NCBI GenBank assembly: GCA_964460855.1
Contig: CAYWQH010000007.1
Coordinates: 5,628-69,627, forward strand
DNA from: an uncultured Candidatus Saccharibacteria bacterium
Lineage (GTDB): Bacteria; Patescibacteriota; Saccharimonadia; Saccharimonadales; UBA10212
Length of the DNA: 64,000 bases
Direction: 5' to 3'
A model generated the notes under the pieces. It saw only the letters and a program-made list of their open reading frames with translations. It was not told the origin of the DNA and searched no databases. Shown in pieces: positions 42,049 through 64,000 of this stretch. The stretch's first letter is position 1, and each line of letters opens with the position of its first letter. The translations under genes were made by a program, and so were the position numbers.

Positions 42049-42077
42049 TTGCGTCAGATTACAGCTTGGGGTATATT
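42049..42077 (+). promoter_or_regulatory. Candidate promoter of giant gene 2 (TTGCGT-17 nt-TATATT)
   Basis: -35 TTGCGT at 42049-42054, a 17-nt spacer, and -10 TATATT at 42072-42077. A ~115-nt A-rich leader follows, containing the direct repeat gtacaaaaaca (42128, 42141). Confidence 0.4.
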
Positions 42078-42195
42078 CGGTTTACGTCTTAGTTTTGGGA
42101 AACTCTAAAGACAAAAAGCACTGAAAAGTACAAAAACAAAGTACAAAAACACGTGCTAAAACAATCATAAAAATCCAAAAGGAATAACTTCGCTA

Positions 42196-48100: not shown

Positions 48101-51100
48101 CCGGTAACGTGCTGAACTTGCAGGGTGGTACCAATGCCTCTACGGCGATCGTACTGCGCACCGGCGCTACCGGCGGAAATGCCGGCGGCATAACCATTGG
48201 CAATACAACAGGAGCCAACACGCAGGCTATAAATATCGGTACAAATGCTACCGGTTCATCAACTACCAATGTAACGATTGGTTCGACTGTAGCAGGTACT
48301 ACTACTTTGCAAAGCGCCGGCGGGGTGAAAGTTACGACGCTGGGCACGGCAACGTCCAACTCCGCATACCTGTGCCGCGATAGTTCGACCACTATTCTTA
48401 CCGCCTGTAATACGACTGGCACTGGCGTGGCGTTCGTAAATGGCGGCAATAGCTTTGGTGGAGTTGGAGTACTCGGAACCCTGGACGCTAACGGCCTGCA
48501 AATTGTTACCGGCGCCAGCGGACCTAACGGCCGGGCCTTCTTCTCGGCTACCAGCAACGATTTATACTTCGGTAATGCCAGCACCGGCGGCACGGCTGCA
48601 ACACCTAATGATTTCAACGTTTCCGGTACTGGCAGCTCGACAGCCGGCACAACCGGCGGCGCCCTGACTGTCAGCGGCGGGGCCGGCGCGACCGGTACTA
48701 CCGGCTCTAACGGCGGCGCACTTAACTTGCAGGGCGGTACTGCTTCCGGTACCAACGCCCGGACCGGCGGCGCGGTAGCCATTACTGGCGGCACGCCTTC
48801 GGCTACCGGCGTTGGTGGCGCCATCAGCTTGACTTCCGGGGCCGGCGGCTCAACCTCTGGCAACTCCGGCGCCATTACCATTGCTACCGGCAATACCACC
48901 AGCGGCACGGCCGGCAACATTTCTATCGACGTCGGTACCAGCACCAGCGGTAATGGCACAATATCTATCGGCACCGCCTCCCGCGCCCAAACCATAGCAG
49001 TCGGCAACACTAACGCCAGCACCGGCGTGTCAATCGAGGCCGGCACCGGCGCCTCGGCCATCCAAATCGGCAACGGCGGTACAGCCCATGGCATCCAAAT
49101 CGGTACCGGCGCGGCCGTCCAAACCATCGTTATCGGCTCAACCAATTCCACCAGCGCCACCAGCATCCAGGGCGGCGTTAGCGGCGCGATTAACATCGGC
49201 AGCGTTGCCAGCTCAACATTGGCTTCTACGACAAATATCGCTACAACTAGTGACGCTACCGGCACCCAAGTAGTAAATATCGGCTCCAGCGCCAAGACCA
49301 ACAACGCCGTAACTATCGAAGCGGGCAATACCGGCACGATTGCTATCGGCAATGGCGCGACTGCCCATACCATAAACGTCGGCACCGGCGCAGCCGTCCA
49401 GGGCATAACGATTGGCTCGACTAACACTACCAGTGCTACTAATATCCAAGGCGGCGTTAGCGGCGCGATCAATGTCGGCAGCGTCGGTTCTTCTACTCTG
49501 GCTTCCACCACTCACATCGGCGATACGACCGATGCCACCGGAACCCAATTAGTAACCATCGGCAGCAACGCTAAAGCCGCCAACACTCTAACCTTGCAAG
49601 GCCAAACCGTAAATGTCGGTTCGGTAGGCGCCTCTACAACTGCCACGGCCGTCCATATCGCTGATACTTCCGACGCCACCGGCACCCAAGCCGTTTCTAT
49701 TGGCAGCAACGCCAAGGGAGCCAACAGCCTTACCTTAGATGCCGGAACCGGGGCAACGGCCATCCAAATCGGCAACGGCGGTACAGCCCATGGCATCCAG
49801 ATCGGAACTGGCGCGGCCGTCCAAACATTAGTTATCGGCTCTACGAACACCACTAGCGCCACTAGCATCCAGGGCGGCGTTAGCGGCGCGATTAACATCG
49901 GCAGCGTTGCCAGCTCAACTTTGGCTAGCACTACGAATATCGCTACAACTAGCGACGCTACCGGCACCCAAGTAGTAAATATCGGCTCCAGCGCCAAAGT
50001 TAACAACGCTATTAATATCCAAGGGGGTACTACCGGCGGCATTAATGTGGGTACAGTCGGTTCAGCTACTGCCGGTTCAACCATCCATATCGCTGATACT
50101 TCTGACGGAACGAACACCCAAGCCGTTACCATCGGCAGCAACGCTAAGACAACTAACACCTTAACGCTTCAGGGCCAGACAGTAAGTGTAGGTACAGTAG
50201 GCAGCGCCACTACAGCCACCACCATCCATATCGCCGATACCAGCGACGGCACCAACACTCAAGCAGTTACCATCGGTTCGAACGCCAAAACAACCAATAC
50301 GCTAACGCTTCAAGGCCAAACGGTAAGTATCGGCACCGTAGGTTCGGCTACCACGGCCACCACCATTCACATCGCCGATACTACGGACGCTACCAACTCG
50401 CAAATAGTTACAATCGGTTCAAACGCCAAGAGCACCAACGTCACGTCTATCCAAGGCCAAACGCTTAACCTGGGAGCTGTTGGTTCGGCCACTACTGCCA
50501 CTACGGTTAATATTGCCAATACTTCGGATGGAACGAATACCCAAGCGGTAAATATCGGTAGCAATGCTAAAAGTACTAACACCTTATTACTCGATGCCGG
50601 CACGGCTGCCAATGCCGTCCAAATTGGTAACAGCGCCACAGCCCACGGCATCCAAATCGGTACCGGCGCGGCAGTCCAAACTATCGTTATCGGCTCAACT
50701 AACACCTCTAGCGCCACTAGTATTCAAGGCGGGGTAAGCGGCGCGATCAATGTCGGCAGTGTTGGCAGCTCAACCTTGGCTTCAACCACGCACATCGCTG
50801 ACACTACAGACGCAACTGGTGCCCAGGCAGTTACCATTGGCAGCACCGCCGCTAATGCCGGAAACCTGACGACTTTGCAAGGCGGTACCGACGCTGCTAC
50901 TGCCATCTTGCTAAGGACTGGCGCAACGGGCGGCGCTGCCGGCGGAATAACTATCGGCAACACAACCGGCGCCAATACCCAGACAATTAATGTTGGTACT
51001 AACGCCACTGGCTCGTCGTCTACCGCCGTAAATATTGGCTCAACGGTAGCTGGTATTACCACGCTGCAAAGCGCCGGCGGCGTTAAAGTAATTACCCTCG

Positions 51101-54100
51101 GAAGCGCCGACACCAACACCATTCTTTGTAGAAACTCCAGCAACTTTATCGCCACTTGTACCGGCGCCGCCAACACCTTACAAACCGCTTATAACGCTTC
51201 AACCGGCGGCAGCACTTCGGAAATAATCCTCGACACCACCCGCAATGCCGTAGATATCCAGGACCGCAGTACAAGTAACGGCGGCACAATTGGCGCTAAC
51301 TTATTGAACGTCCGGGCTACAGCTGCCAACGACAGCACTGCCGGCGCCTTACTATTCGGTATCGGCAACACCGGCGCCGCGACATTCCAAAACAGCGCCA
51401 ACTCATCCACGGCCTTCCAAGTCCAGAACGCCACTGGCGAACAAATGCTAAATATCGATACCACAAACTCTAACTTAATTACTAACAGCGGCATCGAAGC
51501 CAACCCGCTGGCTAACTGGAGTTACAACGGCACGCCGGGCTCGGTTACCCGCGACACTTCCACGAGCTACCTGGGCAGCGCTTCGCTTAATGTAACCACT
51601 GCCGGCGGTGCCCTAGACGGCGCCAAGCAAACACTGGCAACTACGCTATCGGCTTCTACGGCTTACTTCATATCCTGGGAAGACAAGCTATCAGCCTCTA
51701 CATTTACCGATGTTAAAGCTATGTTCTCTTATGACGGTACTATCGGTAATGCCATCAGCTGTAGCTCACAAAATACCCAAACGGTTGTAACTACTGGCTG
51801 GACCCGCCATTCCTGCACCTTCACCACAGGCTCGGGCGGCACCGCTCCGACTTCCAGCAACGCCATCTTCATAGTCCAAACCGCCGGCGCTACCCGTACT
51901 TTCTGGATAGACGCCGTGCAGCTTCAACTAACTGCCGCGACCCCTTACACAAACGGTGGAATACAAGTCGGCGGCTCAATAACCTCGCCGACCGTCTTCC
52001 AAAACGCCGTTAACAGCACAACCGCCTTCCAGATCCAAAACGCTGCCGGCACCGGCAACATCTTTGTTGTCGATACGATTAACGGCCGGATTGGCATAAA
52101 TAAGGCTATTCCAACTAATGCGGTTGATGTTATCGGCTCGGTGGCCAGCGACAGCGCCTTCGTATTAGGTACCAGCTCGCTGACTTCCGGCCAGATCCGT
52201 AAAACAATGACCGTCGGCGCGACTAACGTGGCCGCTAAAGACGTAGTTGTATTCGGCCTCGACGGCGCCAGCAATACCAGGGTATTTACGTCTACCACTG
52301 GCCGTGACCCGCGGGTCTTCGGTGTCGCCCAAAGCGCCGTCAGCTCCGGCTCTTCCGTTGACGTAATTATCAGCGGCATGACTCAAGTTAATGTAAACAC
52401 CGGCGATACGATTGCCGTCGGCGACCAATTAGTTGTCAGTACAACCGGCGGCGTGGCGGTTGTCGATAACAATGCTACGCAGGGAATTATCGGCTACGCC
52501 ACCCAGGCCAAAAACAACACCACCCCCGGACCGATCGGCATCTACGTCAAACCCATTAACGGCGTAAACAACCCGATATTTAAGAATACTTCCGACGGCA
52601 CCACGGCCTTCCAGATCCAAAACGCCAACGGCAATAACTACTTATTGGTTAATACTACCGGCGCCACGATCTCGGTCGGCGACACCAGCATCGCTTCAAC
52701 CGTCCAAATCGGTAACACTACCGGAAACGTCACCCAAACTATCAACATCGGCACCAACGCAGCAGGCGGCAGCTCCACCGAAAACGTCAATATCGGTTCC
52801 AGCGTGGCCGGCACCACCGCCATTACCGGGGCTACTACCATCACCAACCGCACGTCAGGTTCAGCCGACACATTGGTAGTAAACAACTCGTCCAGCACCG
52901 GTACCATCGCCAAGTTCCAGGATAACGGCGCTACTGTCTTCCAGTTGGCTGACGGCGGCGCAGCCACCTTCTCCAACCAGACTAACTCGGCTTCGGCCTT
53001 CCAGGTCCAAAACGCTTCGGCCGAACCGCTAATTAACGTCGATACCACTACCCAAAACCTGGTAACCAACGGCAGCTTCGAAACCAACACCACCGGCTGG
53101 GCCTTGAAGGGCAGTGCCAGCATTGCCCGGATAACCAGCGACAGCGCCGTCGGCAACGCCAGCCTGGACGCTACTACTACCGCCGCGGCTAACGACGGTA
53201 TGAAGTACGCCATATCCTTGGTAAGTAACACCAAATATAGCCTGAGCTTCTACGCCAAAGTGTCCGGTACCCCCGGCGCGTTCTTAAGCTACGGTTACGC
53301 CCAAGACGGCTCGACCGAAACCGGTTCGACCACCAGCCTGACCCAAAACGTACTTTCCAACGGCTGGACCAGGTACAACCTGACATTTACTACGGCTACT
53401 GTCAGCGGCTCGCCTTACGTATTCATTAAACAAAGCGATGCCACAATCCGCGAACTTAAGATTGACGGCGTCATGCTTACCAAATTCAGCCAGCTAACCA
53501 ACGCCGGCGGCGAATTGGCTGTTGCCGGCAACTGGGTCACCAAATCAACTGCCGCTGTTACCCAGGATTCAACCTTCTTCTACGCCGGTGCTGACTCGGT
53601 TAAAACGGTTACTACCGCCGCCAACAACGACGGTGTTAAGCAGGCAATTACTTTAAGCGATTCATCCTTCTACACCCTTAGCTTCTACGCTATGCTGGGC
53701 TCCGCCAGCAACGCCATGGCGACCATGGAAGCCGGCTATTCGTCGGATGGTTCTACCGACAATACAGTTTGTACGACTGCTAAGACCTTATACACAGGCT
53801 GGATCAACTATACCTGTACATTCGTTACGCCGTCTTCGCACTCCGGCACGCCATACATATATATCAAGCAAACCGATAACGTAATCCATACGTTCTACAT
53901 TGACGAAGTCCAATTGGTCGCCGGCAATATTCCTAACCAGTACCAAAGCGGCACTATCCAATTAAACGGCGTACTTAACTCGCCGATCGCTATCCAAAAC
54001 GCGACTAACTCAACCACTGCATTCAGCATCCAAAACGCTAGCGCAACTAATGTATTCAATGTTGACACCACCAACGGCGGGGCAATATCGGTCTTTGGCA

Positions 54101-57100
54101 CAACCAACGGCGAAGTCGGCCCGTGGACAACCCAAACTAACAACTTGGCAACCGGATTGAACGACAGCTCCGTAGTTTACGCCAACGGTTACATTTACAT
54201 CCTTGGCGGCGGCGATTCAGGCAATACTGCCCAAACGACCACCCAGTACGCCAAGGTAAATGCCGATGGCAGCTTGGGCAGCTTTACTGCCGGCCCGGCT
54301 TTACCAGCCGGACGCCGGCTGGGCACTGCCGTCTTCTTAAACGGCTACTTATACTACATGAACGGTAGCGGAACAGGCGCGGCCGGCCAGGTTTACTACA
54401 CCCGGGTAAATCCCGACGGCGGGCTTAACGCTTGGCAGACCAACCCGGTTAATATGCCGCAAGCTAACCGCACCGGCATGGCGGCCTTTACTTACAACGG
54501 CTTGATATATGTTTGGGGCGGCAGCGCCACTCAGGACTACACGTTTGTTAAACCCAATACTGATGGCTCCCTAACCAACTTTACTTACGTAACCCAGTAC
54601 ACCCTAAACAGCAACCGCGACTTTACCGGTGTAGCCGTAGCCAACGGTTTCGTTTACTGGGTTGGCGGCCGCAACAATGTGCCTACCGGAACAGCGGTAG
54701 TATCTTACGCGGCAATAAACTCCGACGGCACCCTGGGCACAGCATCAACGACTTCTTCGCTGCCAGAAGCCCGCACGTTTAACGGCCGCGTCGAAATTAT
54801 AAATGGCTACTTATACGCTATTGGCGGCGGCAACGCGTCCGGTACAGCCCGCAACACCGTTTACTACGCCAAGATTAACTCTACGACCGGCGGTGTAGGT
54901 ACTTGGAACACAGCGGTAAATAACCTGCCGATGACTACCGGTGTAACTGATAACGAGACTATCAGCGCTAACGGTTACTTATATAGCATCGGCGGTATCA
55001 TAGACGGTTCGAGCGCACAAAGAACGACTTACTATGCTTCGACCTCCCGGCTTACCCTGGGCGGATCTTTAGACTTGGTAGGAGCTTCGGCAACCAGCAG
55101 CACGATCGCCTCCGGCGGCGGCTCCCTGGTCGCCGGAAATTCCAGCATCCTGGGCAATCTAAACGTCGCCGGCGAATCATCCTTTAACGGCGGCGCGACA
55201 TTTGCCGGCATAATATCTGCCGGGTCAGGCATTAATGTTCAGGGCAGCGCCAATGCCACCTCCATATCAACATCGGCATTATCGGCGCCTACCGGCACTC
55301 CAACAGTTACTCAAACTGGAGCTACCGGAGCCGCCCAGTGGAAGTATGTTGTTACGGCAGTAGATGCTAACGGCAACGAATCGACTACTTCTGCTACGGG
55401 TACTGTAAATAATGGCAATGCCACTGTAAGCACCACAAACTACATTACGGTTACGTTTAATACGGTTCGAGGCGCAAGTTTCTATAATATCTACCGCACC
55501 CAATCTGGCGGTACTCCTAGTAGTACCGGTTTAATATCTTCAGTACCGGCTGGCCCAAATTCCACGCAAACAGTTACCGATATAGGTTACCAGGGCGCCA
55601 CTGGTTCAACCCCGGTTACAACTACTAAATCCGGCAGCGTATCAATAGCCGGATCCATCCAGGGCCAGGCTTCATTCGTCGGCGATATCTTAAGCAGCCA
55701 AATAAACCCGGTCGGCGGCATATCAGTCAACCCGACCCTTGGTTCTGGTACTAGCTATACTTACGGGGTTACCGCGGTCGACCCACAAAACAATGAAACG
55801 GCTGTTGTTACCGCAGCCACGGCAACCGGCGCCGCTACGCTTGATGCCTCGCACTTTAATACTATTGCCTGGAGTCCTGTTCCCGGCGCCGCTAAGTATA
55901 AGATTTACCGTACGGCTTCGTCGGGTACCCCGGCAACAACCGGTTTGATCGGCACTAATACGATATCTAATAACTTTACGAATATAGGCCCGCAAACCTT
56001 CGTCGATAACGGCATTGCCGGCGACGGCAGCACAGCTCCGTCTACAAACACAACCGGCGTGGCAGTCTTTAATGGCTACTCAACAACATCCAGAAGCGCC
56101 GTTAACAACACCGCGGCCTTTGCCGTCCAAAATGCCACTAGCTCAGCCGCGCTGTCGGTTGATACAACCGCGGTCAATACATTCGTCAGCAACAGCAGCT
56201 TTGAAAATAACTTGGTCACCGGCTGGACAGCCAGCGGTACCGGCGCCTCGATTGCCGCCACCACTGCAGAAAAATACGTCGGCAGCTATAGCATGGCCTT
56301 CACCACCGGTACGGCCGTCGGCAACAGCGCCCGCTTAACTATCGGTGCCGTCCTTTCAACCAGCACAACCTATACCCTAAGCTTCTACGCCAAGACCAAC
56401 ACCGCCTTTAACACTATCAGCGCCTCATACGCTTCGGGCGGCTCAACCGCGACTGAAACTGACTGCGCGGTATTAACTCCGGTAACCCGCCAGGTAATAA
56501 CAACTGCCTGGACCCGCTTTACTTGTACGATTACCACCAGCGCGACCTCGCCGACCGGTTCGGCCTATATCGCCATCAAGCAAAGTGACTCAACTTCTAG
56601 GATCCTGTACATCGACGGCGTCCAGATAGAAGCCGGCAGCTCCATTACTACTGGCCAGATTTCCAACACCGGTTTCGAAACCAACACTACCGGCTGGGCT
56701 TACTCTACTGGCGTCGGTACTGGTACTATCGCCCAAAACGCCACGCCATATAACGGCGCCCAGTCGATGAGGCTTAATATTACAGCCGGCGCTATTAATG
56801 CCGGTACCCGCTTCGTAACCAACAACACCGGCGCCACGGCGCTGGCCCAAAACACCGATTACATCCTGAGCTTCTGGGCCAAGTCGACCGGCGCGGTAAC
56901 TAACTTAGCTGCCGCTTATGCGGTTGACGGTACTAACCAGGTAGATTGCCGGCTAAACTCAAATACAGTCAGCTCATCGGCCTGGACCTATTACTACTGT
57001 ACGATTTCAACCGATAGCACTGCCGTTAACGCCGGCGCTTACATTACTATTAAAGAATCTTCCTCGGCTGTTGAGACTATCGATATTGATAACGTCTTGC

Positions 57101-60100
57101 TTACCAAGGCCACTTCGGTAAGCTCGCCGTCGGCCTTCCAGGAAACAGCTATTTCCTTAAACGGGGCAGTTACTTCGCCGACCAGCTTCAAGAACCAGTC
57201 CAACTCCACCACTGCCTTCCAGATCCAGAACTCGGCCGGCGGCAACTTGTTCAGCGTAGACTCCGCTTACTCTAACGTCAGCATCCTGACCAATAACTCC
57301 GGCGACGTAATGCCGTGGCAAACCAACAGCTACCCGTTAAATGCCGCCCGCACTACTGTTAGCAGCGCCGCCTGGAACGGCTATATGTATACGGTTGGGG
57401 ACAACACCACAATCGTAAACTATGCCAAGATTAACTCTAACGGCTCGCTGGGCACCCAAAATACGACAACCGCCTTACCTGTCGCCCGCGAGCGCCAAGG
57501 CCTGGTCGCGGTTAATGGGTATCTCTACTTGGTAGCCGGTTCTAATAGCGGTACCGAAGTAAATAATGTTTACTACGCCAAGATATATAACGACGGCACG
57601 CTAAGCACCTGGGTATTGAGCCCCAACACTTTGGCTAATGCGCGCCGTAACTTAAGTGTTATAGCCGTAAACGGTTACATCTACGCCATCGGCGGTACCA
57701 GCGGCGCAGGCACCTACTACACAGACGTCTCATACGCCAAAGTAAACGCCGACGGTACTACCGGTCCATGGCTAGCTACGACAAGTATGCCGACAACCCG
57801 GCAGCTGGCTGGGGTCGCAGCGGCAAACGGTTACTTATATATACTTGGCGGTTTCAACGGCACGGCATACGACAACGTCACTTACTTCGCGCCTATCAAT
57901 GCTGACGGTACGATAGGCAGCTTCCAAACTACTACCGTACTGCCGGGAACCAGGGGCGCCGGCGCCGCGTATGTAGCCAACGGTTACATATACTTTGTCG
58001 GCGGCGCTACATCCTCAACGCAAGGCGTTGAATACGCCCAGCTAAATCCCAACGGCCAAATCGGCAGCTGGACGGCTTCAAATAACCAATTGCCGAATCC
58101 CCGAGGTTTCTACGGTTATTCGTTCGTAAACGGCTATATGTATGTAATTGGCGGTTATGATGGATCGGCGGCCGCCGCGACCGTTTACTACACGTCAACC
58201 TCGCGTATCAGCGCCGCCGGTTCTATCGACCTGGTTGGCACAAGCTCCGAAAATCTAGCCGATGTAGGCCAAACCACCGGCGGATCAATCACGGCCGGCA
58301 ACGGTACGTTCGTAGGCGACTTGAATGTAAACGGCTTGGCCTACTTCAACAATAACGTGACGGTAAATAAAGAATTGCGCGTCGATGGCAGCACAACAAT
58401 TAAAAATGTCACCGGCAGTACTAATATGCTGCAAATCCAAAATGCCGGTGGCAGCAACGTATTCACCACGAACACGGTCAACTTAATCCGTAACAGCAAC
58501 TTCGAAGGCGGCACCAGCGGCATAGATAATGAGGTAGATTTCTGGGCCAAGCGCGGCGCTACGACTACCCTGGCTGTTGATAACACCCAGTCTTACTTTG
58601 GCCAGCAATCGATGAAAGTAGTAACTTCGGCCGCTACCACCGACGGCGTTAAATATAACTTCGTCTTTACGCCGAGCACCAGCTACGCCATGAGCTTCTA
58701 TATTAAAGATACAACTGGCACCATAGCCACCATGAGCTACGGCCGCACCGACACCGGCGCCGGAGCAGGCGAAACTGCTTGCCAAAGCTCGCAAACCATC
58801 AGCAGCACCTGGACCCGCTTTACCTGCAGCTTTACCACCGGCGCGACTATCGGCGCCAGCGGCACGCCATACATATATATAAATGCCGGTACCGCATCCC
58901 ACACATTCTACGTCGATGGCGTCCAGTTAGAGCAGGTGGGCAGCACTTCTGTCAGCGCCAGCGACTACCGCGGCGGCGACGTAACGGTTGATGGCATCGC
59001 CACCTTCAAGTCGACCGCCGACACGGCCACCGTACTGCAAATCCAAAACAGCAACAGCGCCAACCTGCTGTCCGCCGACTCAACCGGCAATGCTCCAACA
59101 GTTAACTTGGTTTCCGATAGCGGCGCCGAAGTAGCCGGCAGCACATCTACGACCTTCCCGAGTTCGACCTGGGCCGCCCAGGCTTCGTCTACCGTCGCCC
59201 GCGACGTCAGCATATATAACAGCGGCACGGGCAGTGTCAGCGTCAATATGGGTACCACCGCCAACAACGGCGTTAAGAATACCTTGGTATCCAGCCCGGC
59301 AACTAACACCGAATACATCGTATCGTTCAACGCCAAACTGATTGCCGGTACGGCCTGGACAACTATGGACGTCGAATATTCCGCCGACAACGGCTCAACA
59401 CTGGTAGCTTGTAGTAACTACAATACCCAAACCATCGTAACCACCGGCTGGACAAAAGTAACCTGTATGATTGCCAGCACCGGCGCCACCGCCGTCACAA
59501 CACCACTTCTGATCATCCGCCAAACCGACACGCCGGGCTCCGGCCGTACCTTCAACATCGATAACGCCAGCTTCATTAAGCAAGACGCCGGCACCAACGC
59601 CGTCAGCACCATCCGCCTGGGTGGCAACACCGGCCAGGGCTTAACCTTGCTAACACTGGATTCCTTCGCCGACCGGCCGTTTACCGGCGCCACCAACACT
59701 TCGCTGCTGGGCAGCATGTACTACGACACTACCATCGGCAAGATCCAGTGTTACGAAGCCGCCGGCTGGGGTACTTGCGGTTCGCGCCTACCGCAAACCG
59801 TAACACTTAACCCCGAATATCCGGGCGCCGTACTAACCGGCGACGGCACCAACAACACCGGTAGCATGACCTCCGACTTCTGTTCGGGCACCGGCCGGTT
59901 GAACATCAACGTTAGCGGCTCCAACTGTGGTACCAACGACGAATTCAACTACTACGCTTGGACCGCCCAAGCTACAAACGACTATGACATCTACGTTAAG
60001 TACCAGCTGCCGAGCGACTTCAACGGCTGGAGCAGCGACACCTCGATTAAGATGTACGGCTGGGTAACGGCTACTTCTACCGATAAGGTCGAGCTGGCTA

Positions 60101-60330
60101 TGTTCAACGCCGCCGGCACCCAGTGTGGCTCAACTACTACCCTTAACTCCAGCAACCTGACCTGGCAGCAAACCAACATGACCGGCAGCGAATCGTCCGA
60201 CTCGGCCTGTAACACCACCAACATGGCGCCGGGCAGTATCGTGACCTTCCGCATCAAGATGACCGTCGGTACTAACAACGACTTTGCCCGCGCCGGCTAC
60301 CTGCAATTTACATATAACAGCTTGTTCTAA
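42196..60330 (+). CDS. Giant secreted/surface protein 2 (6044 aa): fibre-like repeat arrays + at least nine CBM4/9-like modules + two Kelch propellers + FN3-like pair
   Basis: An uninterrupted 18.1-kb ORF. A signal-peptide-like N-terminus (MLKLALTVSVFACLAIGVFVSKTTPVDA) begins at the second Met (42235, preceded by GGGAG), which may be the true start. CBM-like modules by motif reading lie at ~44860, 46021, 51490, 53060, 53490, 56170, 56650, 58480 and 59100. Confidence 0.9.
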   Translation: MPNRNGIKRVGSPMLKLALTVSVFACLAIGVFVSKTTPVDATSSNYLNFQARLLSTAGAVVPDGNYNVEFKIYDASASAGSSQGSCAGDANCLWTETRTGGNKVRVVNGYLTVDLGAVTGFPVINWDQQLYLTMNIGGTGAASWDGEMSPRLTLTAVPYAFRAQQLALQTGANESTLSFATQTAANSILLPDEAGTLCIRNSANCGFAAATGSSAYIQNGTGLQTNANYNIQSAATNSVGAVIRGASGQTADLFDLQHGASGTNVVSVGPDGQALFQNKNNSSTAFRIQDASGKNYLAVDTVGASISVGDTGIASSIQVGNTTGAVTQTINIGTNSTASSTNNINIGSSIAGTTAITGPTTITSRTSGSATGLAITSSSTGNGEDVSLTNTSGTQTNGLSIDRNGAGGATTNLLSLSNTAGTATNAINITGTFGNNLINTPSFNVSNGGSVQANAGYLINSITTGSFAKRIVAGTGGVTTNDVVICAVDSSNFRVLDTTTARDIRVCGVATAGAASGSNAQVAFVGNVTVNADAAAVAIGDQLVTSTTSGAVTVNNSATNGILGIASSAKGAGAATVTVQLGIFRGVTNPDFGGGNLTTTGTYNTNTFNSSTLQFGAAGTATIDSASGQTLQIGTGANAHNVTIGNTTGSTGLSLLTGTGNFSLDGVGASTYQLGTSTTNGTIAIGGTAQTGTLTLGRSTATNTISIGASAGNGNTQTINIGNSGTAGSTTNLVLGSTIGGSTTIQSAGGLVLTTLGTADNNTTLCRNSSNIVATCTNGGNTLQSAYNASTGGATSEIILDTTRNALDIQDRSTSNGGTIGANLLNIRATAATDATAGATLLSVGNTGAVLLQNSANSANALQVQNAIGDQLLNIDTTNSNLITNSSIEISPLSNWTYSGTAGSVTRDTSQFYFGNASLNVTTNNGANDGAKQTLATTLAASTTYFISWWDKLSASTFTDVKAQFSYDGTTGNAANCATFNTQTVLTTGWTRHTCSFTTGSGGTAPTASNAIYIVQTAAAVRTFWIDGVQLEQTAATPYNDGKIQLNGVVTSPTTFQNTNNSLMAFQIQNAAGTSNLFVADTINGRIGIGKATNLSATLDVNGTVYASSEFSLSNATFGNIKKAYTAGTGGVTANDVVVLASDSGNSRVIDTTTARDPRVFGVVASTASAGNTVFTAIAGQATVNYTGTAPVIGDQLVTSTVAGSVIVDNNATSGVLGYAVSNGSSGTVSVMIEQIHGVTNPIFRNNSNSTNAFQVQNATGDTEFNIDTTQTSLLSNPSAEQAFSASNWQVKAGGETVTQDSTQKYIGSKSIKVITTGSALDGVKQNITLNDGPAVTYALNFEAKLDSGSAAFSTLIARYNNGSADTNCVTGGSILSTGWKRFSCTFSSPNSHSGTPYIYIGQSDANAHTFYVDAVQLTLSSTNLPYTDSNYQLNGVISSPVTFQNQSDSNTAFQIQNAAGTGNTFIVDTTNTRVGIGAQPSVLGTTGLEVTGTTYSSTGFVIGTSTSTGNITKFFTVGTGGVTASHPVILNTDGGNPRVMETTTARDQHVIGVAGTTAASTGTAWVTIYGAAQVNADGHVFGNAGGAIAPGDRLVIGASGAVYKDNNATSGIVGISQGTLALNGTSATLNVWVMPQTGNDNARFQNTTDNTTAFQVQNAAGNNYISVSTSGASVSIGDTGIASTIQVGNTTGAVAQTINIGTNATGSSTNTIHIGDGANATNTITEGSSSNTANTYTLEAGTGATAIQIGNGATAHGIQIGTGAAVQTIVLGSTNTTSATSIQGGVSGAINIGSVGSSTLASTTHIADTTDATGTQLVTIGSNAKSANTLTLQGQTINTGAVGSATTATAVHIADTSDGTSTQAVTIGSNAKTTNTLTLQGQTVSVGSIGSSTTATTVHIADTTDGTSTQAVTIGSNAKSTNTLTLQGQTVNVGTVGSATTATAVHIADTSDATNAQAVTIGSTAANAGNVLNLQGGTNASTAIVLRTGATGGNAGGITIGNTTGANTQAINIGTNATGSSTTNVTIGSTVAGTTTLQSAGGVKVTTLGTATSNSAYLCRDSSTTILTACNTTGTGVAFVNGGNSFGGVGVLGTLDANGLQIVTGASGPNGRAFFSATSNDLYFGNASTGGTAATPNDFNVSGTGSSTAGTTGGALTVSGGAGATGTTGSNGGALNLQGGTASGTNARTGGAVAITGGTPSATGVGGAISLTSGAGGSTSGNSGAITIATGNTTSGTAGNISIDVGTSTSGNGTISIGTASRAQTIAVGNTNASTGVSIEAGTGASAIQIGNGGTAHGIQIGTGAAVQTIVIGSTNSTSATSIQGGVSGAINIGSVASSTLASTTNIATTSDATGTQVVNIGSSAKTNNAVTIEAGNTGTIAIGNGATAHTINVGTGAAVQGITIGSTNTTSATNIQGGVSGAINVGSVGSSTLASTTHIGDTTDATGTQLVTIGSNAKAANTLTLQGQTVNVGSVGASTTATAVHIADTSDATGTQAVSIGSNAKGANSLTLDAGTGATAIQIGNGGTAHGIQIGTGAAVQTLVIGSTNTTSATSIQGGVSGAINIGSVASSTLASTTNIATTSDATGTQVVNIGSSAKVNNAINIQGGTTGGINVGTVGSATAGSTIHIADTSDGTNTQAVTIGSNAKTTNTLTLQGQTVSVGTVGSATTATTIHIADTSDGTNTQAVTIGSNAKTTNTLTLQGQTVSIGTVGSATTATTIHIADTTDATNSQIVTIGSNAKSTNVTSIQGQTLNLGAVGSATTATTVNIANTSDGTNTQAVNIGSNAKSTNTLLLDAGTAANAVQIGNSATAHGIQIGTGAAVQTIVIGSTNTSSATSIQGGVSGAINVGSVGSSTLASTTHIADTTDATGAQAVTIGSTAANAGNLTTLQGGTDAATAILLRTGATGGAAGGITIGNTTGANTQTINVGTNATGSSSTAVNIGSTVAGITTLQSAGGVKVITLGSADTNTILCRNSSNFIATCTGAANTLQTAYNASTGGSTSEIILDTTRNAVDIQDRSTSNGGTIGANLLNVRATAANDSTAGALLFGIGNTGAATFQNSANSSTAFQVQNATGEQMLNIDTTNSNLITNSGIEANPLANWSYNGTPGSVTRDTSTSYLGSASLNVTTAGGALDGAKQTLATTLSASTAYFISWEDKLSASTFTDVKAMFSYDGTIGNAISCSSQNTQTVVTTGWTRHSCTFTTGSGGTAPTSSNAIFIVQTAGATRTFWIDAVQLQLTAATPYTNGGIQVGGSITSPTVFQNAVNSTTAFQIQNAAGTGNIFVVDTINGRIGINKAIPTNAVDVIGSVASDSAFVLGTSSLTSGQIRKTMTVGATNVAAKDVVVFGLDGASNTRVFTSTTGRDPRVFGVAQSAVSSGSSVDVIISGMTQVNVNTGDTIAVGDQLVVSTTGGVAVVDNNATQGIIGYATQAKNNTTPGPIGIYVKPINGVNNPIFKNTSDGTTAFQIQNANGNNYLLVNTTGATISVGDTSIASTVQIGNTTGNVTQTINIGTNAAGGSSTENVNIGSSVAGTTAITGATTITNRTSGSADTLVVNNSSSTGTIAKFQDNGATVFQLADGGAATFSNQTNSASAFQVQNASAEPLINVDTTTQNLVTNGSFETNTTGWALKGSASIARITSDSAVGNASLDATTTAAANDGMKYAISLVSNTKYSLSFYAKVSGTPGAFLSYGYAQDGSTETGSTTSLTQNVLSNGWTRYNLTFTTATVSGSPYVFIKQSDATIRELKIDGVMLTKFSQLTNAGGELAVAGNWVTKSTAAVTQDSTFFYAGADSVKTVTTAANNDGVKQAITLSDSSFYTLSFYAMLGSASNAMATMEAGYSSDGSTDNTVCTTAKTLYTGWINYTCTFVTPSSHSGTPYIYIKQTDNVIHTFYIDEVQLVAGNIPNQYQSGTIQLNGVLNSPIAIQNATNSTTAFSIQNASATNVFNVDTTNGGAISVFGTTNGEVGPWTTQTNNLATGLNDSSVVYANGYIYILGGGDSGNTAQTTTQYAKVNADGSLGSFTAGPALPAGRRLGTAVFLNGYLYYMNGSGTGAAGQVYYTRVNPDGGLNAWQTNPVNMPQANRTGMAAFTYNGLIYVWGGSATQDYTFVKPNTDGSLTNFTYVTQYTLNSNRDFTGVAVANGFVYWVGGRNNVPTGTAVVSYAAINSDGTLGTASTTSSLPEARTFNGRVEIINGYLYAIGGGNASGTARNTVYYAKINSTTGGVGTWNTAVNNLPMTTGVTDNETISANGYLYSIGGIIDGSSAQRTTYYASTSRLTLGGSLDLVGASATSSTIASGGGSLVAGNSSILGNLNVAGESSFNGGATFAGIISAGSGINVQGSANATSISTSALSAPTGTPTVTQTGATGAAQWKYVVTAVDANGNESTTSATGTVNNGNATVSTTNYITVTFNTVRGASFYNIYRTQSGGTPSSTGLISSVPAGPNSTQTVTDIGYQGATGSTPVTTTKSGSVSIAGSIQGQASFVGDILSSQINPVGGISVNPTLGSGTSYTYGVTAVDPQNNETAVVTAATATGAATLDASHFNTIAWSPVPGAAKYKIYRTASSGTPATTGLIGTNTISNNFTNIGPQTFVDNGIAGDGSTAPSTNTTGVAVFNGYSTTSRSAVNNTAAFAVQNATSSAALSVDTTAVNTFVSNSSFENNLVTGWTASGTGASIAATTAEKYVGSYSMAFTTGTAVGNSARLTIGAVLSTSTTYTLSFYAKTNTAFNTISASYASGGSTATETDCAVLTPVTRQVITTAWTRFTCTITTSATSPTGSAYIAIKQSDSTSRILYIDGVQIEAGSSITTGQISNTGFETNTTGWAYSTGVGTGTIAQNATPYNGAQSMRLNITAGAINAGTRFVTNNTGATALAQNTDYILSFWAKSTGAVTNLAAAYAVDGTNQVDCRLNSNTVSSSAWTYYYCTISTDSTAVNAGAYITIKESSSAVETIDIDNVLLTKATSVSSPSAFQETAISLNGAVTSPTSFKNQSNSTTAFQIQNSAGGNLFSVDSAYSNVSILTNNSGDVMPWQTNSYPLNAARTTVSSAAWNGYMYTVGDNTTIVNYAKINSNGSLGTQNTTTALPVARERQGLVAVNGYLYLVAGSNSGTEVNNVYYAKIYNDGTLSTWVLSPNTLANARRNLSVIAVNGYIYAIGGTSGAGTYYTDVSYAKVNADGTTGPWLATTSMPTTRQLAGVAAANGYLYILGGFNGTAYDNVTYFAPINADGTIGSFQTTTVLPGTRGAGAAYVANGYIYFVGGATSSTQGVEYAQLNPNGQIGSWTASNNQLPNPRGFYGYSFVNGYMYVIGGYDGSAAAATVYYTSTSRISAAGSIDLVGTSSENLADVGQTTGGSITAGNGTFVGDLNVNGLAYFNNNVTVNKELRVDGSTTIKNVTGSTNMLQIQNAGGSNVFTTNTVNLIRNSNFEGGTSGIDNEVDFWAKRGATTTLAVDNTQSYFGQQSMKVVTSAATTDGVKYNFVFTPSTSYAMSFYIKDTTGTIATMSYGRTDTGAGAGETACQSSQTISSTWTRFTCSFTTGATIGASGTPYIYINAGTASHTFYVDGVQLEQVGSTSVSASDYRGGDVTVDGIATFKSTADTATVLQIQNSNSANLLSADSTGNAPTVNLVSDSGAEVAGSTSTTFPSSTWAAQASSTVARDVSIYNSGTGSVSVNMGTTANNGVKNTLVSSPATNTEYIVSFNAKLIAGTAWTTMDVEYSADNGSTLVACSNYNTQTIVTTGWTKVTCMIASTGATAVTTPLLIIRQTDTPGSGRTFNIDNASFIKQDAGTNAVSTIRLGGNTGQGLTLLTLDSFADRPFTGATNTSLLGSMYYDTTIGKIQCYEAAGWGTCGSRLPQTVTLNPEYPGAVLTGDGTNNTGSMTSDFCSGTGRLNINVSGSNCGTNDEFNYYAWTAQATNDYDIYVKYQLPSDFNGWSSDTSIKMYGWVTATSTDKVELAMFNAAGTQCGSTTTLNSSNLTWQQTNMTGSESSDSACNTTNMAPGSIVTFRIKMTVGTNNDFARAGYLQFTYNSLF
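47611..48120 (+). repeat. 141-nt (47-aa) in-frame tandem repeat array, about 3.5 copies
   Basis: Unit starts at 47611, 47752, 47893 and 48034 (exact 141-nt spacing). Unit protein is HIADT(S/T)D(G/A)T.TQ(A/L)VTIGSNAK..NTLTLQGQT(V/I).(V/T)G.(V/I)GS.TTAT.V. Confidence 0.85.
50083..50590 (+). repeat. 141-nt (47-aa) in-frame tandem repeat array, about 3.6 copies
   Basis: Unit starts at 50083, 50224, 50365 and 50506 (exact 141-nt spacing). A further 1.6 copies lie at 49513 and 49654. Confidence 0.85.
54165..55065 (+). other. Kelch-type beta-propeller 1 of giant 2
   Basis: ANGYIYILGGG..TQYAKVNADGSLGSF, LNGYLYYMNG, YNGLIYVWGG, ANGFVYWVGG, INGYLYAIGG, ANGYLYSIGG. It is collinear with 35944..36830 of giant 1. 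Confidence 0.6.
57355..58215 (+). other. Kelch-type beta-propeller 2 of giant 2
   Basis: WNGYMYTVGD, VNGYLYLVAG, VNGYIYAIGG, ANGYLYILGG, ANGYIYFVGG, VNGYMYVIGG, each followed by (V/Y)YA(K/Q)(I/V/L)N.(N/D)G..G(T/S)(W/F). Confidence 0.6.
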
Positions 60331-60382
60331 AGGATAACCATGAAAATATTCACCACAACACTCACAACGGCCAGCCTGCCAC

Positions 60383-60495
60383 CCAGCAGAGCTGAGTGTA
60401 CTGCTGGCCTCTTGGCTATTTCCGGCTTGCGCCATCAAAAGGCTCACTCACCGTATGTCTATATACGGCTCGTTCGCCATTTGTGGCACTGCACC
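60383..60495 (-). ncRNA. Copy D (shorter, most diverged) of the unassigned structured RNA element family
   Basis: The reverse complement reads GGUGCAGUGCCA..GCGAACGA-GCCGUAU-AUAGAC-AUACGGU-GAGUGA..UUUUGAUGGCGCA, then the hairpin CCAGCAG..CUGCUGG. It keeps the GAACGA/GAGUGA tandem-GA loop and the CGUAU/AUACG hairpin but lacks one internal helix. Confidence 0.4.
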
Positions 60496-60889
60496 GAAAC
60501 TAGCTCAAGTGTGAGCGCCGTGGAGAATATTTTTCACAAGTTCATCAATCAGATTTCGATCTCAAACCTAGTACTGCCAACTATCCAATTTTTTGCGGCC
60601 GGCAACGCCGCCTTACAATCGTCACTTACTATTTACGTCCGCGAGGGCAGAATGGTTAGTGAAAATAAGTGGATTTGCGGGGGGCCGCTTATGTGAAGCG
60701 TAAATAAATAAACCCCCACAACAAACACTAAAAATAAGAGTAATAGGTAGATTATCCGGCGGCCAATGGTCTCGCAGCCGCAGCCGGCCTGGATTAATAT
60801 TGCTCAAAAACCAACAGCAAAAAAGCTGCCCGTACCTTAAGCAAAAAGAATGCAAAAATAGCTTACACAAAAACTTAAAAAACCTTCCA

Positions 60890-60926
60890 ACGTTCCGGTA
60901 ACACCTCCCAAAACTAACCGGAACGT
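60890..60926 (+). other. Perfect 10-bp hairpin displaying an anti-Shine-Dalgarno-like loop (AACACCUCCCAAAACUA)
   Basis: acgttccggt (60890-60899) pairs with accggaacgt (60917-60926). The 17-nt loop contains CACCUCCC. It lies 37 nt upstream of RNA copy B. Confidence 0.5.
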
Positions 60927-60962
60927 ACAAACAAACATTAAAAACTTCATTCGCACGTACTT

Positions 60963-61100
60963 GGATGCACCGCTAGGAAGAAGCGAATTTCGAACGAATC
61001 GTATCGAACATACGGTGAGAGAGAAATTTTAGCGCACTGACAACGCGGGGCGCCAAGAGTGTTTTTATAAACTTGGCTTTGCCAGGTTTGGTAAAAACAC
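60963..61100 (+). ncRNA. Copy B of the unassigned four-member structured RNA element family
   Basis: Reads GGAUGCACCGCUAGGA..GAACGA-AUCGUAU-CGAAC-AUACGGU-GAGAGA..GACAACGCGGGGCGCC (60963-61054), then a long hairpin GUGUUUUUA..UUGGC-UUU-GCCAG..UAAAAACAC (61059-61100). The U-G wobbles (U.G in the CGUAU hairpin and in the 3' hairpin) fit only + strand RNA. Confidence 0.55.
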
Positions 61101-61323
61101 GTTACGCGTGAATGAAAAAAACGTCGTAACACAAAATAACTCTTTAAAAAACCTCCCAAAACAATTCCTCCCAAGGAAAACAAACAGTTTCCCAAAACTA
61201 AAATTAAAATCTCTTCAAAAAAGAGTTAGCCTACCGGCAGCAGGCCGTAACTCGTAAAAATTCAAAACCAAAAACCGTAAAAAGCAAACAAACATCCAAA
61301 TGTTTAAAACCAAAATTATCCGA

Positions 61324-61360
61324 AGCGGGTAGTCTAAACAGATTACCCGCTTTAGATTTA
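61324..61360 (+). terminator. Terminator-like hairpin upstream of giant gene 3
   Basis: A 12-bp stem (agcgggtagtct 61324-61335 / agattacccgct 61340-61351, with one G.U) and loop aaac, followed by tttagattt. Confidence 0.45.
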
Positions 61361-61415
61361 CAGGTGGATAACTTAAGCAGTTCAGTTATAATGATGGTAT
61401 AAAGTGAAAACGCAA

Positions 61416-64000
61416 ATGAGGGATGTGCTAACTCGCATTAAGCAAACCAACAAGCGGTTATTTTTTATACTGACCGGCGTGCTTGTAGTTGCCAGCCAAT
61501 TATTATCTATCCAACCGGCAGGCGCCGCAATTACCCAGAGGGGAACGGTTACTAGCGCAAACTCAAGTACTAACAATGTCACCTCAATTGCAGTCAATAA
61601 ACCTACTGGTGTAGTAGCCGGAGACGTGATGGTTGCGACTATCACTGTTAGCGGCGTACCGGCTCTAACCGTACCCACTGGTTGGAACCTGGTAGAAGCA
61701 TCAGTAACCACAAATACTACGTTAGAAATGGGTGTTTGGACCCGTGTGGCCGGAGCTAGTGAGGGAGCAAATTATACCTGGAGCTGGACTGGCACCCAGC
61801 GGGCTGCTGGCACAATCGTAGCTTACACGGGAGTCGACAACTCAACAGTAGTCGATAACAGCGGTGCTGCACACTCTAAAAATACGGGAACAAGCGCTGC
61901 TCCTAGCACAGCTACTTTTACAACTACTAGCGCTAATACAGTACTTGTTGCCTCGTTTGCTGATACTACCAATGCATCTAACTTCGCGGTCGCATCAGCA
62001 GCGACAGCCGGCGCGTTTGATTCCGAACTTACCGAAACTGCGAGTAATAGCGTAACCACCCCCAATGTCGATACTTCGGTAGATGTAAAGGCATGGTCAG
62101 GCAGCGGGGCAACAGGAGCAGTTTCAACAACTTCAACCAATACGGCTTGGATTGCCCAGGCTTTCGCGCTTAAACCGGCAGGCGCGCCAACATTTGACCA
62201 GACCGGATACCGTTTTTCGGTTAATGCCGATAATACTTTCCCGCACTATATGAAAGACAATTTAACCGGTGTAGACGATACGATCCGCGGCGTAACCAAC
62301 GACACAATAAACGGCTATATGTACGAAGTTGGCGACAACGGTGCCAACTGGGTTATCGAAAAACGCCGGATCGCGGATGGGGCATTATGTACCAGCACGA
62401 ACTGCGGAACCACTTTCGGCACGGCCGGGCGGGTAACAGAAGACGTCGCCGCCAGCGCCACCGAAATCGCCTATTCGGTAGCTGTCGACCCCAGCCTTAA
62501 CTCTATATTCGTAGTAGGAATGGATAACGTAACTGGCGGCGGTGAGTGGCGCATCGAAAAACGCGACGCTTTGACTGGTAATCTAGATACTACTTTTAAC
62601 AGTACCGGTATTGTGCAGAGCAACCCTTCATCCCAAATAGACGAAGCTTTGCAGGTATTGTTAGATAACATTAACGGCTATTTATATGTCGGCGGTTATG
62701 ACGGAACCGGAAACAACCAATGGCGCTTAGAAAAATACAAAGCCAGTACCGGCCTAATATGTACGGCGATAAACTGCGGTACGCTGTTCGGCACTGGCGG
62801 CGCGTATTCCAATAACATTAGTAATAGCGACGATAAAATATCTAACCTGGCTATCGACCCCACCAACTCCTATTTGTTCGTATCCGGCTATAGCACGGCT
62901 AATAACGGTAAAACCCAGTGGACCATGATTAAAATGCGCACCAGCGACGCGGCGCTGTGTACGGCTGCCAACTGCGGCACCCAATTTGCCAGCTCAGGTA
63001 CATTTACCGAAGACCCGACTAACGGCGACGACAAAATTCTGGCATTGCAGGTCGATTCGGCGGCCAATGCCATATATATTGGCGGCTCCGAAGAATACTC
63101 GAATGGTAAGTTCCAATGGCGGATAGATAAGTTATCGGTTGATGCCGGCGCGTTGGTTACGGCTTTTGGCGGCAGCGGCTGCAACTCTAATGAAGCCGGA
63201 GCTTTGTGCACCGTTTTTAGCTCGGGAACAGATAAATTATATGACTTGGCGCTGGACGGGGCGGGCGGTTATATATATGTATTTGGTACCGCTGATGAAA
63301 CGGCAAGTAACTCAACGTGGCGGGTCCAAAAAAGGCAGCGCAGCGACGGTTCGCTAGTTTCTGCCTTTGGAACCAGCGGGACAACGTCAGTCGACCCCAG
63401 CACTGGTAAAGACACAATCGCCCTGATGGCCCTCGATACTACCCGCGGCTTGATGTGGGTAGCCGGCAATGACCGTTCGCTGGGCACAACCAATGCCGAA
63501 TGGTATATGGAGCAGTTGCAACTCGACACCGGCACCAAGTGGCTGGCGGCCGCCAATACCGTAGGCGGTTTGAGTTCGGGCGTGACTTTCCGGCTGCGGC
63601 TGCTGCTGCATGTAACTACCGGCAACAATTACATTACCGATACTAACTCTTTTAAACTTCAGTACGCCGTTAAAAGCGGCACTTGCGACACGGCTTTTGT
63701 CGGCGAAACATATGCCGATTTAGCTACTGCGGGTACGGCGGATTTACTTTGGCAGGATAACCCGAGCAACGCCAATCCTGTAAACATGGTTGCAATTAGC
63801 GGCGAAGACCCGACGCACAGCACCGATACCGTTGTACCCCAGTCTTTATACGAATCTAATAACTTTACTAATGGAGTCGCCGATGTTTTGAACGGCCAGG
63901 ACGGCATGTGGGACTTTGCCATTAAAGATAACGGCGCTTTCGGCGCCTACTGCTTCCGGGCCGTTACCAGCGCCGGCGCTACTTTAGCAAATTACTCGAT
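61416..64000 (+). CDS. Giant surface protein 3, N-terminal >861 aa (open at the window end): signal peptide + ~60-aa Cys-containing propeller-like repeats
   Basis: I translated the frame of ATG 61416 by hand to position 64000 and found no stop, so it is absent from the ORF track only because it lacks a stop in the window. The upstream in-frame stop is at 61392 and GTG 61404 is an alternative start. N-terminus is MRDVLTRIKQTNKRLFFILTGVLVVASQLLSIQPAGA. The minus-strand ORFs listed in this interval are antisense artefacts. Confidence 0.8.
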   Translation, partial: MRDVLTRIKQTNKRLFFILTGVLVVASQLLSIQPAGAAITQRGTVTSANSSTNNVTSIAVNKPTGVVAGDVMVATITVSGVPALTVPTGWNLVEASVTTNTTLEMGVWTRVAGASEGANYTWSWTGTQRAAGTIVAYTGVDNSTVVDNSGAAHSKNTGTSAAPSTATFTTTSANTVLVASFADTTNASNFAVASAATAGAFDSELTETASNSVTTPNVDTSVDVKAWSGSGATGAVSTTSTNTAWIAQAFALKPAGAPTFDQTGYRFSVNADNTFPHYMKDNLTGVDDTIRGVTNDTINGYMYEVGDNGANWVIEKRRIADGALCTSTNCGTTFGTAGRVTEDVAASATEIAYSVAVDPSLNSIFVVGMDNVTGGGEWRIEKRDALTGNLDTTFNSTGIVQSNPSSQIDEALQVLLDNINGYLYVGGYDGTGNNQWRLEKYKASTGLICTAINCGTLFGTGGAYSNNISNSDDKISNLAIDPTNSYLFVSGYSTANNGKTQWTMIKMRTSDAALCTAANCGTQFASSGTFTEDPTNGDDKILALQVDSAANAIYIGGSEEYSNGKFQWRIDKLSVDAGALVTAFGGSGCNSNEAGALCTVFSSGTDKLYDLALDGAGGYIYVFGTADETASNSTWRVQKRQRSDGSLVSAFGTSGTTSVDPSTGKDTIALMALDTTRGLMWVAGNDRSLGTTNAEWYMEQLQLDTGTKWLAAANTVGGLSSGVTFRLRLLLHVTTGNNYITDTNSFKLQYAVKSGTCDTAFVGETYADLATAGTADLLWQDNPSNANPVNMVAISGEDPTHSTDTVVPQSLYESNNFTNGVADVLNGQDGMWDFAIKDNGAFGAYCFRAVTSAGATLANYS

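Follow-up and report, generated by a model that had tools for sequence, protein, structure and literature searches.

The spacer between giant genes 2 and 3 carries two structured hairpin elements, copies D and B, which on balance we take to be old copies of a selfish hairpin repeat, dispersed and non-autonomous, that resembles Rickettsia palindromic elements (RPEs) or ERIC repeats. We favor a dispersed repeat over a locus-specific regulator because its copies are found in both orientations within ORFs unrelated to one another, among clustered tRNA genes, in an rRNA operon and at gene ends, and also because truncated remnants are left and copies are present or absent between relatives. The 118-aa ORF predicted over copy D is very probably an artefact of the repeat and spurious.

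Copies of the repeat in the window

The whole stretch of DNA analysed here, a window of 64 kb, was searched with R1, a covariance model built solely from window copies A, B, C and D, with filters off. Exactly these four copies of the hairpin repeat were found. Copy D scored 117 bits at 60366-60502 on the minus strand and copy B scored 154 bits at 60957-61102 on the plus strand. A second covariance model, R2, whose training sequences came mostly from other genomes, returned the same four copies and no others and still recovered D (61.5 bits) and B (89 bits). The same four, and no others, were also found with a sequence-only HMM. When the reverse complement of 60383-60495 was aligned with 60963-61100, the two shared a common core CGAACGA..CGTAT...ACATACGGTGAG.GAG, followed by GCCAAGAG. 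The parts common to D and B appeared as inverted repeats in an inverted-repeat search as well. The original prediction of two copies of a structured element in opposite orientation is thus borne out by the alignment, both models and the HMM, and the head-to-head arrangement of D and B was confirmed; their divergent transcription, as had been stated, is putative.

The limits first assigned to the two copies were too narrow. The copies exist, but the true elements are larger and are closed by copy-specific outer stems (Table 1). Because the outer stem enlarges the element, D begins 12 nt after the stop codon of the 18-kb giant gene 2 (60328-60330), not 53 nt after it as had been stated. The window elements are 160-190 nt long and each folds as a long rod. 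A and B are the closest pair in the window, with 87% identity over the rod; they differ by compensatory pairs, and the stems of their second hairpins are entirely different. The outer stem of copy C overlaps a TAA stop codon at 8910-8912.

Table 1. Positions of the repeat copies, their parts and other features in the window
Feature	Position	Strand	Evidence and remarks
Copy D, whole rod	60343-60533	-	R1, R2, outer stem, fold
D outer stem, 24 bp	60343-60366 with 60510-60533	-	Inverted repeat
D conserved core	60366-60512	-	
D apical module	60443-60476	-	CGAACGAG-CCGUAU-AUAGAC-AUACGG-UGAGUGAG; pattern match and folds
D second hairpin	60369-60409	-	Apex GCUCUGC; inverted repeat and fold
Copy B, whole rod	60946-61116	+	R1, R2, outer stem, fold
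B outer stem, 14 bp	60946-60959 with 61103-61116	+	Inverted repeat
B conserved core	60957-61102	+	
B apical module	60991-61023	+	CGAACGAA-UCGUAU-CGAAC-AUACGG-UGAGAGAG
B second hairpin	61059-61100	+	Apex GGCUUUGCC; folds
Copy A	25722-25880 (R1 match 25728-25872)	+	Between class I aminoacyl-tRNA synthetase gene 22838-25714 and rplU 25962-26288
Copy C	8911-9071 (R1 match 8919-9062)	-	Antisense, between winged-helix ORF 8625-8912 and rpsU 9128-9340
Predicted 118-aa ORF	60340-60696	+	Judged very probably spurious
Small hairpin, outside the family	60893-60925	+	GTTCCGGT...ACCGGAAC, loop with CACCTCCC; in A/C-rich tract upstream of B
G+C-rich hairpin	61318-61357	+	Followed by UUUAGAUUU; terminator-like with weak U-tract; inverted repeat
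Sigma-70-like promoter match TGGATA-16-TATAAT	61365-61392	+	10/12 positions; single match, no more than chance

Fold of the copies

In each window copy, an outer stem particular to that copy encloses a long rod together with a second hairpin. The apical module is the most conserved portion of the family, and in D it is a hairpin with a GA/GA internal loop on either side. The minimum free energy of D was -110 kcal/mol on the minus strand versus -79 on the plus strand, and that of B was -67 on the plus strand versus -54.6 on the minus strand. Over the window copies, the sense strands were more stable than the antisense strands by 12-31 kcal/mol (MFE), and the fold z-scores ranged from -2.8 to -5. 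On the plus strand, D is a long hairpin, 12 nt past the gene 2 stop codon, with AUAUUUUU at its end, and the complement of B ends in UUUUU. A terminator scan called neither the D nor the B antisense hairpin, and U-tracts are inconsistent across the family.

The 118-aa ORF over copy D

Copy D lies wholly within the predicted ORF, as had been noted, and the first 66 codons of the ORF are the stop-free antisense frame of D. Protein-level homologues of the ORF were sought, and none was found beyond the ORF itself. It had no Pfam match, and among 5.8 billion proteins it had only self-matches, which came from one strain assembled in three metagenomes. When 1.84 billion representatives were searched in full with phmmer, the ORF was returned along with one weak match (E=2.7e-5), whose matched part lies outside the element. 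The ORF had been described as having no SD-consistent features, which is not quite so: a weak AAGGA is located at 60330-60334, 5 nt before the ATG at 60340.

At least one antisense frame is free of stops in 62 of the 88 copies, and the same is true of the sense strand in 32. Copy D has exactly one antisense frame without any stop. Elsewhere, orphan ORFs of 56-72 aa are called on copies of the repeat, and three were retrieved with a profile of element-encoded peptides, which is too short for useful E-values. The scarcity of stops on the antisense strand would lead gene callers to place orphan ORFs there, presumably including the 118-aa ORF. Since this ORF follows the stop-poor antisense strand of D and has no homologues, we agree with the original prediction that it is spurious. 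The ATG with AAGGA ahead of it and the calling of the same ORF in three assemblies, all of one strain, would fit a real 118-aa protein to which the likeness of D and B is incidental. Against such a protein stand the lack of homologues in both protein sets, the lack of a Pfam match, the 66 codons antisense to a structured repeat and the translation of equivalent copies elsewhere in different frames. We regard a real protein as extremely improbable.

The repeat in other genomes

One genome per species was scanned for the pattern CGTATN{3,6}ACATACGNTGAGNGA, which gave 78 loci. Most of these belong to Candidatus Saccharibacteria and other Patescibacteria (Paceibacteria, Uhrbacteria, Campbellbacteria, Peribacteria), and about ten are from Smithella and other Syntrophaceae, whose version of the repeat is a related one. 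From its gene content and the nearest relatives of its repeat copies, the window itself probably derives from a Saccharibacterium or another Patescibacterium. The pattern is anchored on the apex, so this sample is biased and the invariance of the apex follows in part from the retrieval itself; further copies that the models brought in show compensatory variation there. In the loci from other genomes, R1 found 76 further copies, and R2 found 90 copies in 81 loci. Copies reach a density of 6 per 8 kb and occur in tandem arrays, including arrays of three at locus L063.

In the family alignment, 90.8% of the cells are paired and double changes are seen in 34 of 36 pairs. The observed covariation values were reached by none of 500 shuffles and collapsed when the partners were slid. 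In well-defined helices G-U pairs are far commoner than A-C, which indicates that a single strand folds, either as RNA or as single-stranded DNA. The family fold is a rod of 120-190 nt with fixed features on one strand. They comprise a U-G pair with an adjoining bulged A, a G-A mismatch, an internal loop of the form nAGG/RACR, GA/GA loops (one or two) and, at the apex, CGUAU and AUACG around a pentaloop. The helices between them vary through compensatory change. Loop conservation extends from Saccharimonadia to Peribacteria and Syntrophaceae.

No Rfam 15 family matched the window or 19 related loci at the gathering score, and at E<=10 only chance-level matches appeared. We found no description of this repeat in Rfam or in the literature that could be searched, and no copy in viral contigs, phage records or plasmid records. 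Judged by eye on defining motifs and gene contexts, the repeat does not fit a riboswitch, T-box, 6S, SRP, 5S, Y RNA, C/D-box or K-turn RNA, nor a group II intron domain V, retron ncRNA, omega or bridge RNA, attC site or self-cleaving ribozyme.

Copies within one genome are 60-78% identical and none are near-identical, which lends no support to a recent burst of a mobile element. Orthologous copies are kept between species at 89-92% identity, and truncated remnants adjoin full copies. No conserved promoter was found in the 90 nt upstream of 60 copies; copy C alone has a plausible promoter match, TTGGCA-17-TATTTA. The ends show no consensus terminal inverted repeat, the closing stems being specific to a copy or a subfamily. 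No target-site duplication or target motif was found at the fold-derived (MFE) ends, which are imprecise, and neither a transposase nor a reverse transcriptase was found in the 8-kb loci.

Genomic settings and copies inside protein genes

Both orientations are seen among the intergenic copies, most of which are at the 3' ends of genes, and the neighbors are unrelated housekeeping genes. By ORF calls that are crude, the element has its 3' end up against the stop codon of a convergent neighbor in about 26 of 60 intergenic cases, 14 copies lie between convergent and 2 between divergent genes, and those with co-directional neighbors are antisense in about 24 cases and sense in 13. Other copies are located between tRNA genes (loci L041 and L004) and between the 23S and 5S rRNA genes (locus L050). 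Four of the five copies in such clusters are co-oriented with the stable RNAs, and one tRNA-cluster copy is inverted. A cis-regulatory leader was rejected: the downstream or convergent genes are unrelated, and half of the copies are antisense to their neighbors.

About a fifth of the copies in relatives lie within real genes and leave the reading frame open; none of those in this window does. Open frames of at least 250 codons in the relatives contain 18 of 94 copies, 13 of them antisense to the host frame. Pfam domains are split around copies in MutM/Fpg (two copies), PolA, DnaG (two genomes), ArgRS (two copies) and a Mur ligase (two copies). The in-gene copies are read in several frames as S/T/A/R/P-rich peptides.

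MutM homologues range from 288 to 445 aa. Some carry an insert following MTGQLIWR and others, at about 80% identity, are missing it; partly deleted forms also occur. Because the insert at this site is read in different frames in different species, the nucleotide element is conserved and not the peptide. Element DNA is found at the site in six species, at 67-83 bits for five of the copies and 17 bits for the sixth, which has decayed. These copies differ by compensatory changes, a sequence pattern that points to selection on structure beyond a one-off insertion. Alternatively, the variants match subfamilies at other loci, and replacement by other copies could account for them. An AlphaFold model of one MutM protein (P0002) has a confident fold outside residues 88-134 and 342-421. 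Its pLDDT falls below 50 only at 88-134, 281-285, 289-291 and 342-421, and the two long segments cover the inserts. The model indicates that the inserted peptide is tolerated as a surface or disordered loop.

Comparison with known repeats

In behavior, RPEs come closest among known elements, with ERIC repeats next. RPEs make in-frame insertions into many unrelated genes, and Correia and ERIC repeats affect mRNA processing (review PMC10969869). RPEs and the present repeat are alike hairpin-forming units of about 100-150 bp, and the bacteria that carry them are host-dependent and have small genomes. Multiple copies of each are scattered over intergenic DNA and RNA genes. Both are often found within unrelated housekeeping ORFs with the frame unbroken, present in some homologues and absent from others, and the resulting peptide loops are tolerated. 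Neither has a known transposase. However, the present repeat belongs to another phylum and is likened to RPE-1 through RPE-10 as a kind, not by sequence homology. RPE inserts encode conserved peptides, whereas this repeat is read in multiple frames and keeps its nucleotide structure. Unlike RPEs, it also spans a whole phylum and the Syntrophaceae, with fixed GA/GA loops and strand-specific G-U pairs.

Like the present repeat, the ERIC/IRU repeats of enterobacteria are imperfect palindromes (about 127 bp) that occupy intergenic regions near gene ends in both orientations. As here, the copies are old, stable and orthologous rather than recent bursts, and some ERIC copies are intragenic. The two differ in that taxa and sequence are unrelated and that the present repeat has a higher share of copies in ORFs and forms tandem arrays. 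Correia/NEMIS, BOX, RUP and other MITEs are similarly small, non-autonomous and clustered, form rods in RNA and may occur several to a spacer. MITEs share conserved terminal inverted repeats, are flanked by target-site duplications and have a parent insertion sequence, whereas none of these was found for this repeat, whose ends differ from copy to copy. The RAYT-mobilised REP/REPIN sequences are extragenic hairpins likewise concentrated at gene 3' ends and recognised as single-strand structures, as may also be the case for this repeat. In contrast, REPs are 20-40 nt long with a GTAG or CGTC tag, REPINs are doublets of them, and REPs do not lie inside ORFs; the family consensus holds no 20-40 nt REP unit with either tag. 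Compared with the families of Rfam 15, the covariation-supported structure has the quality typical of genuine RNA families, but none of those families matches it at the gathering score.

Explanations for the repeat

If D and B are copies of a selfish repeat, the conserved structure would be recognised on a single strand, RNA or ssDNA, by a putative mobilising or copying activity, and copies would persist where they do least harm. The long spacer of giant genes 2 and 3 would then be a permissive site that has accumulated two copies, with effects on the giant genes, if any, as by-products. The plus-strand D hairpin could incidentally help to form the 3' end of giant gene 2, and as a side effect the antisense of D may possibly act locally as the 3' hairpin of that gene. 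Several results are unfavorable to the selfish reading. At the fold-derived ends and in the 8-kb loci there is no sign of a terminal inverted repeat consensus, a target-site duplication, a transposase or a reverse transcriptase. The identities of within-genome copies make them old, and orthologous copies have been retained. Compensatory differences are seen at the MutM site and between A and B, and conservation of the loops over a whole phylum is unusual for junk DNA.

An alternative is a stable non-coding RNA useful to the host, in which the sense strand gives a rod of about 130-190 nt whose GA/GA loops and apex bind a conserved protein and in-gene copies are a by-product of spreading. Strong covariation with strand-specific G-U pairs, 5' and 3' ends that pair as in processed stable RNAs, orthologous copies that are kept, compensatory changes at one orthologous site and loops shared from Saccharimonadia to Syntrophaceae are all consistent with it. 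So are the tight spacing and co-orientation of the tRNA-cluster copies and the copy between the 23S and 5S rRNA genes, co-orientation of four in five being as expected for a processed RNA gene. However, one tRNA-cluster copy is inverted, the copies have no conserved flanking promoter or terminator, about a fifth of them are in ORFs, and decayed and truncated copies are present. At a genome size of about 1 Mb, keeping tens of dispersed genes for one RNA would be costly, and the rod offers no long unpaired variable segment for a guide role. We consider such an RNA unlikely. Similarly doubtful is the bolder proposal of a phylum-wide RNA that is under structural selection, is not junk and possibly moves via an RNA intermediate. 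Each copy would then give a stable sense-strand rod RNA with a protein-binding module (GA/GA loops, CGUAU apex), and copies antisense to housekeeping ORFs or gene ends would be antisense or RNP-recruiting regulators. A role as cis-acting gene-boundary elements (terminators, RNase processing sites, 3'-end stabilisers or insulators), with D and B separating the transcription units of giant genes 2 and 3, is the earlier view of the spacer in general terms and seems to us quite improbable. The abutment of element 3' ends on convergent stop codons, the 14 copies between convergent versus 2 between divergent genes, and the known effects of Correia and ERIC repeats on mRNA processing (PMC10969869) would agree with it. 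Locally, the AUAUUUUU end of the D hairpin, the UUUUU of the B complement, and the separate hairpin and promoter-like site ahead of gene 3 would agree as well. But both neighbors run antisense to the element in about half of the intergenic cases, U-tracts are inconsistent, and copies in ORFs, between co-transcribed tRNA genes and in the 23S-5S gap cannot be terminators. Termination does not need conserved loops, and any tolerated insertion is equally expected to avoid divergent promoter regions.

Selfish hairpin repeats that invade ORFs are already known as a kind; new here are the phylum, the phylum-wide loops with RNA-like covariation, and the multi-frame inserts. In-gene repeats of this sort were previously regarded as a peculiarity of Rickettsia. 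The genomes concerned are streamlined to about 1 Mb, yet they hold dozens of copies, some inside essential genes; extrapolation of the density in the window gives about 60 copies per Mb, which puts the element at about 1% of the genome. The structure may serve the spread of the element or the host, and the phylum-wide loops and the compensatory changes at orthologous sites bear on that choice. If the phylum-wide RNA reading is true, ultra-small (CPR) bacteria would have in this repeat a core RNA component of their biology, hitherto undescribed. For annotation, a gene that is very probably false is removed, a class of orphan short ORFs can be explained, and so can odd differences in protein length in Patescibacteria such as that of MutM. 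The covariance model is a direct means for a census of the element and for RNA-expression tests in cultured Saccharibacteria.

Other features of the spacer

The spacer between the giant genes is about 1.1 kb long. It had been called A/C-rich, and within 60331-61403 the skews agree at 60800-60950 and 61100-61300, with a GC skew of -0.3 to -0.54 and an AT skew of +0.4 to +0.5. Comparison of the A/C-rich tracts flanking B gave no duplication, and ACCTCCC motifs are not enriched window-wide. The only Rfam signal of the small hairpin upstream of B is a chance-level isrB-like match. When the C-terminus of giant protein 2 was used to look for the orthologous locus in metagenomes, the only matches were relatives at 37% identity, all without the element.

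The spacer had also been seen as a dedicated RNA-rich regulatory or insulating region. This view is unsupported, the same repeat being dispersed in many settings; because of that dispersal, no locus-specific function is needed for the presence of D and B. The terminator-like hairpin proposed just before giant gene 3 is a real hairpin, and the 76-nt stretch around it (61300-61375) folds with -28 kcal/mol, but the U-tract behind it is broken (UUUAGAUUU) and the terminator scan did not call it. The promoter-like match that follows it lies directly upstream of giant gene 3, which starts at GTG 61404 or ATG 61416.

Comparison of the element copies

Copies A and B of the hairpin-forming element were compared over their rod and second hairpin. 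Their rods are 87% identical and their second hairpins only 34% identical. The second hairpins have a common GGCUUUGCC apex, but the stems beneath it are entirely unalike. This suggests a modular element, or else a rod homogenised through gene conversion.

In copy C, the outer stem overlaps the TAA stop of a convergent winged-helix ORF. A sigma-70-like sequence, TTGGCA-17-TATTTA, lies on the minus strand immediately upstream of this copy. Transcription from this match would begin within the outer stem.

Features discussed in the window
Feature	Positions	Remarks
Copy A, compared region	25729-25872	
Copy B, compared region	60958-61103	
Copy C, overlap of outer stem and stop	8909-8921	
TAA stop, winged-helix ORF	8910-8912	
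TTGGCA-17-TATTTA	9068-9096	minus strand
Giant gene 1	27284-40888	many diverged internal repeats
Giant gene 2	42196-60330	many diverged internal repeats
Giant gene 3	61404-64000	many diverged internal repeats
Spacer upstream of giant gene 2	41444-42195	750 nt, A/T-rich, non-coding
118-aa ORF, residues 66-113	60535-60678	outside the element
CACCTCCC / ACCTCCC / TTCCTCCC motifs	60903-60909, 61151-61157, 61166-61173, 26407-26413	
Motif-bearing hairpin	60893-60925	motif in loop

Element copies in other genomes

Among loci from other genomes, the relative with the top-scoring copy (94 bits with R1, the covariance model from the four window copies) was L050. There the 3′ end of the 23S rRNA gene is followed by the element and then, after a further 12 nt, by the 5S rRNA gene, with all three on one strand (L050:3186-4815). 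Two further loci have element copies alternating with tRNA genes (L041:21-2134 and L004:1581-1980), in the orders tRNA-Phe–element–tRNA-Gly and tRNA-Cys–element–tRNA-Leu, with every member on a single strand. In L004, tRNA-Gly is flanked by an inverted pair of copies. Tandem arrays were found at L063:2298-2885 and 6644-7162; each has three co-oriented copies, spaced about 150-230 nt, and occupies the whole of an intergenic gap of 600-700 nt.

A related rod, CAGAUGC-AAGG...GCAGAUG, with one GA/GA loop only, occurs in Smithella and other Syntrophaceae (L012, L014, L027, L038-L040, L048, L052, L072, L075) at intergenic, non-syntenic sites. Either the element family is wider than Patescibacteria, or it moved between co-resident anaerobes by transfer.

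Giant genes and the 118-aa ORF

The giant-gene repeats have periods of 141, about 600 and about 1950 nt, and their recurring units include ...AFQIQN... and a Kelch-like NGY.Y..GG. The start of giant protein 3 gave no Pfam match. The spacer upstream of giant gene 2 had neither an element copy nor an Rfam match. The portion of the 118-aa ORF outside copy D weakly matched a 627-aa protein (P0125; E=2.7e-5, 26% identity, seven stretches), which is probably low-complexity similarity.

Anti-Shine-Dalgarno-like motifs

The ACCTCCC-type motifs have the same sense as the 16S rRNA 3′ tail and are sited in A/C-rich non-coding tracts; three of the four exact matches are intergenic. Across the whole window the motif was not enriched (4 observed, 4.6 expected). 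One motif lies 4 nt upstream of the ATG (26417) of a 285-aa ORF, at the position expected for a Shine-Dalgarno sequence.
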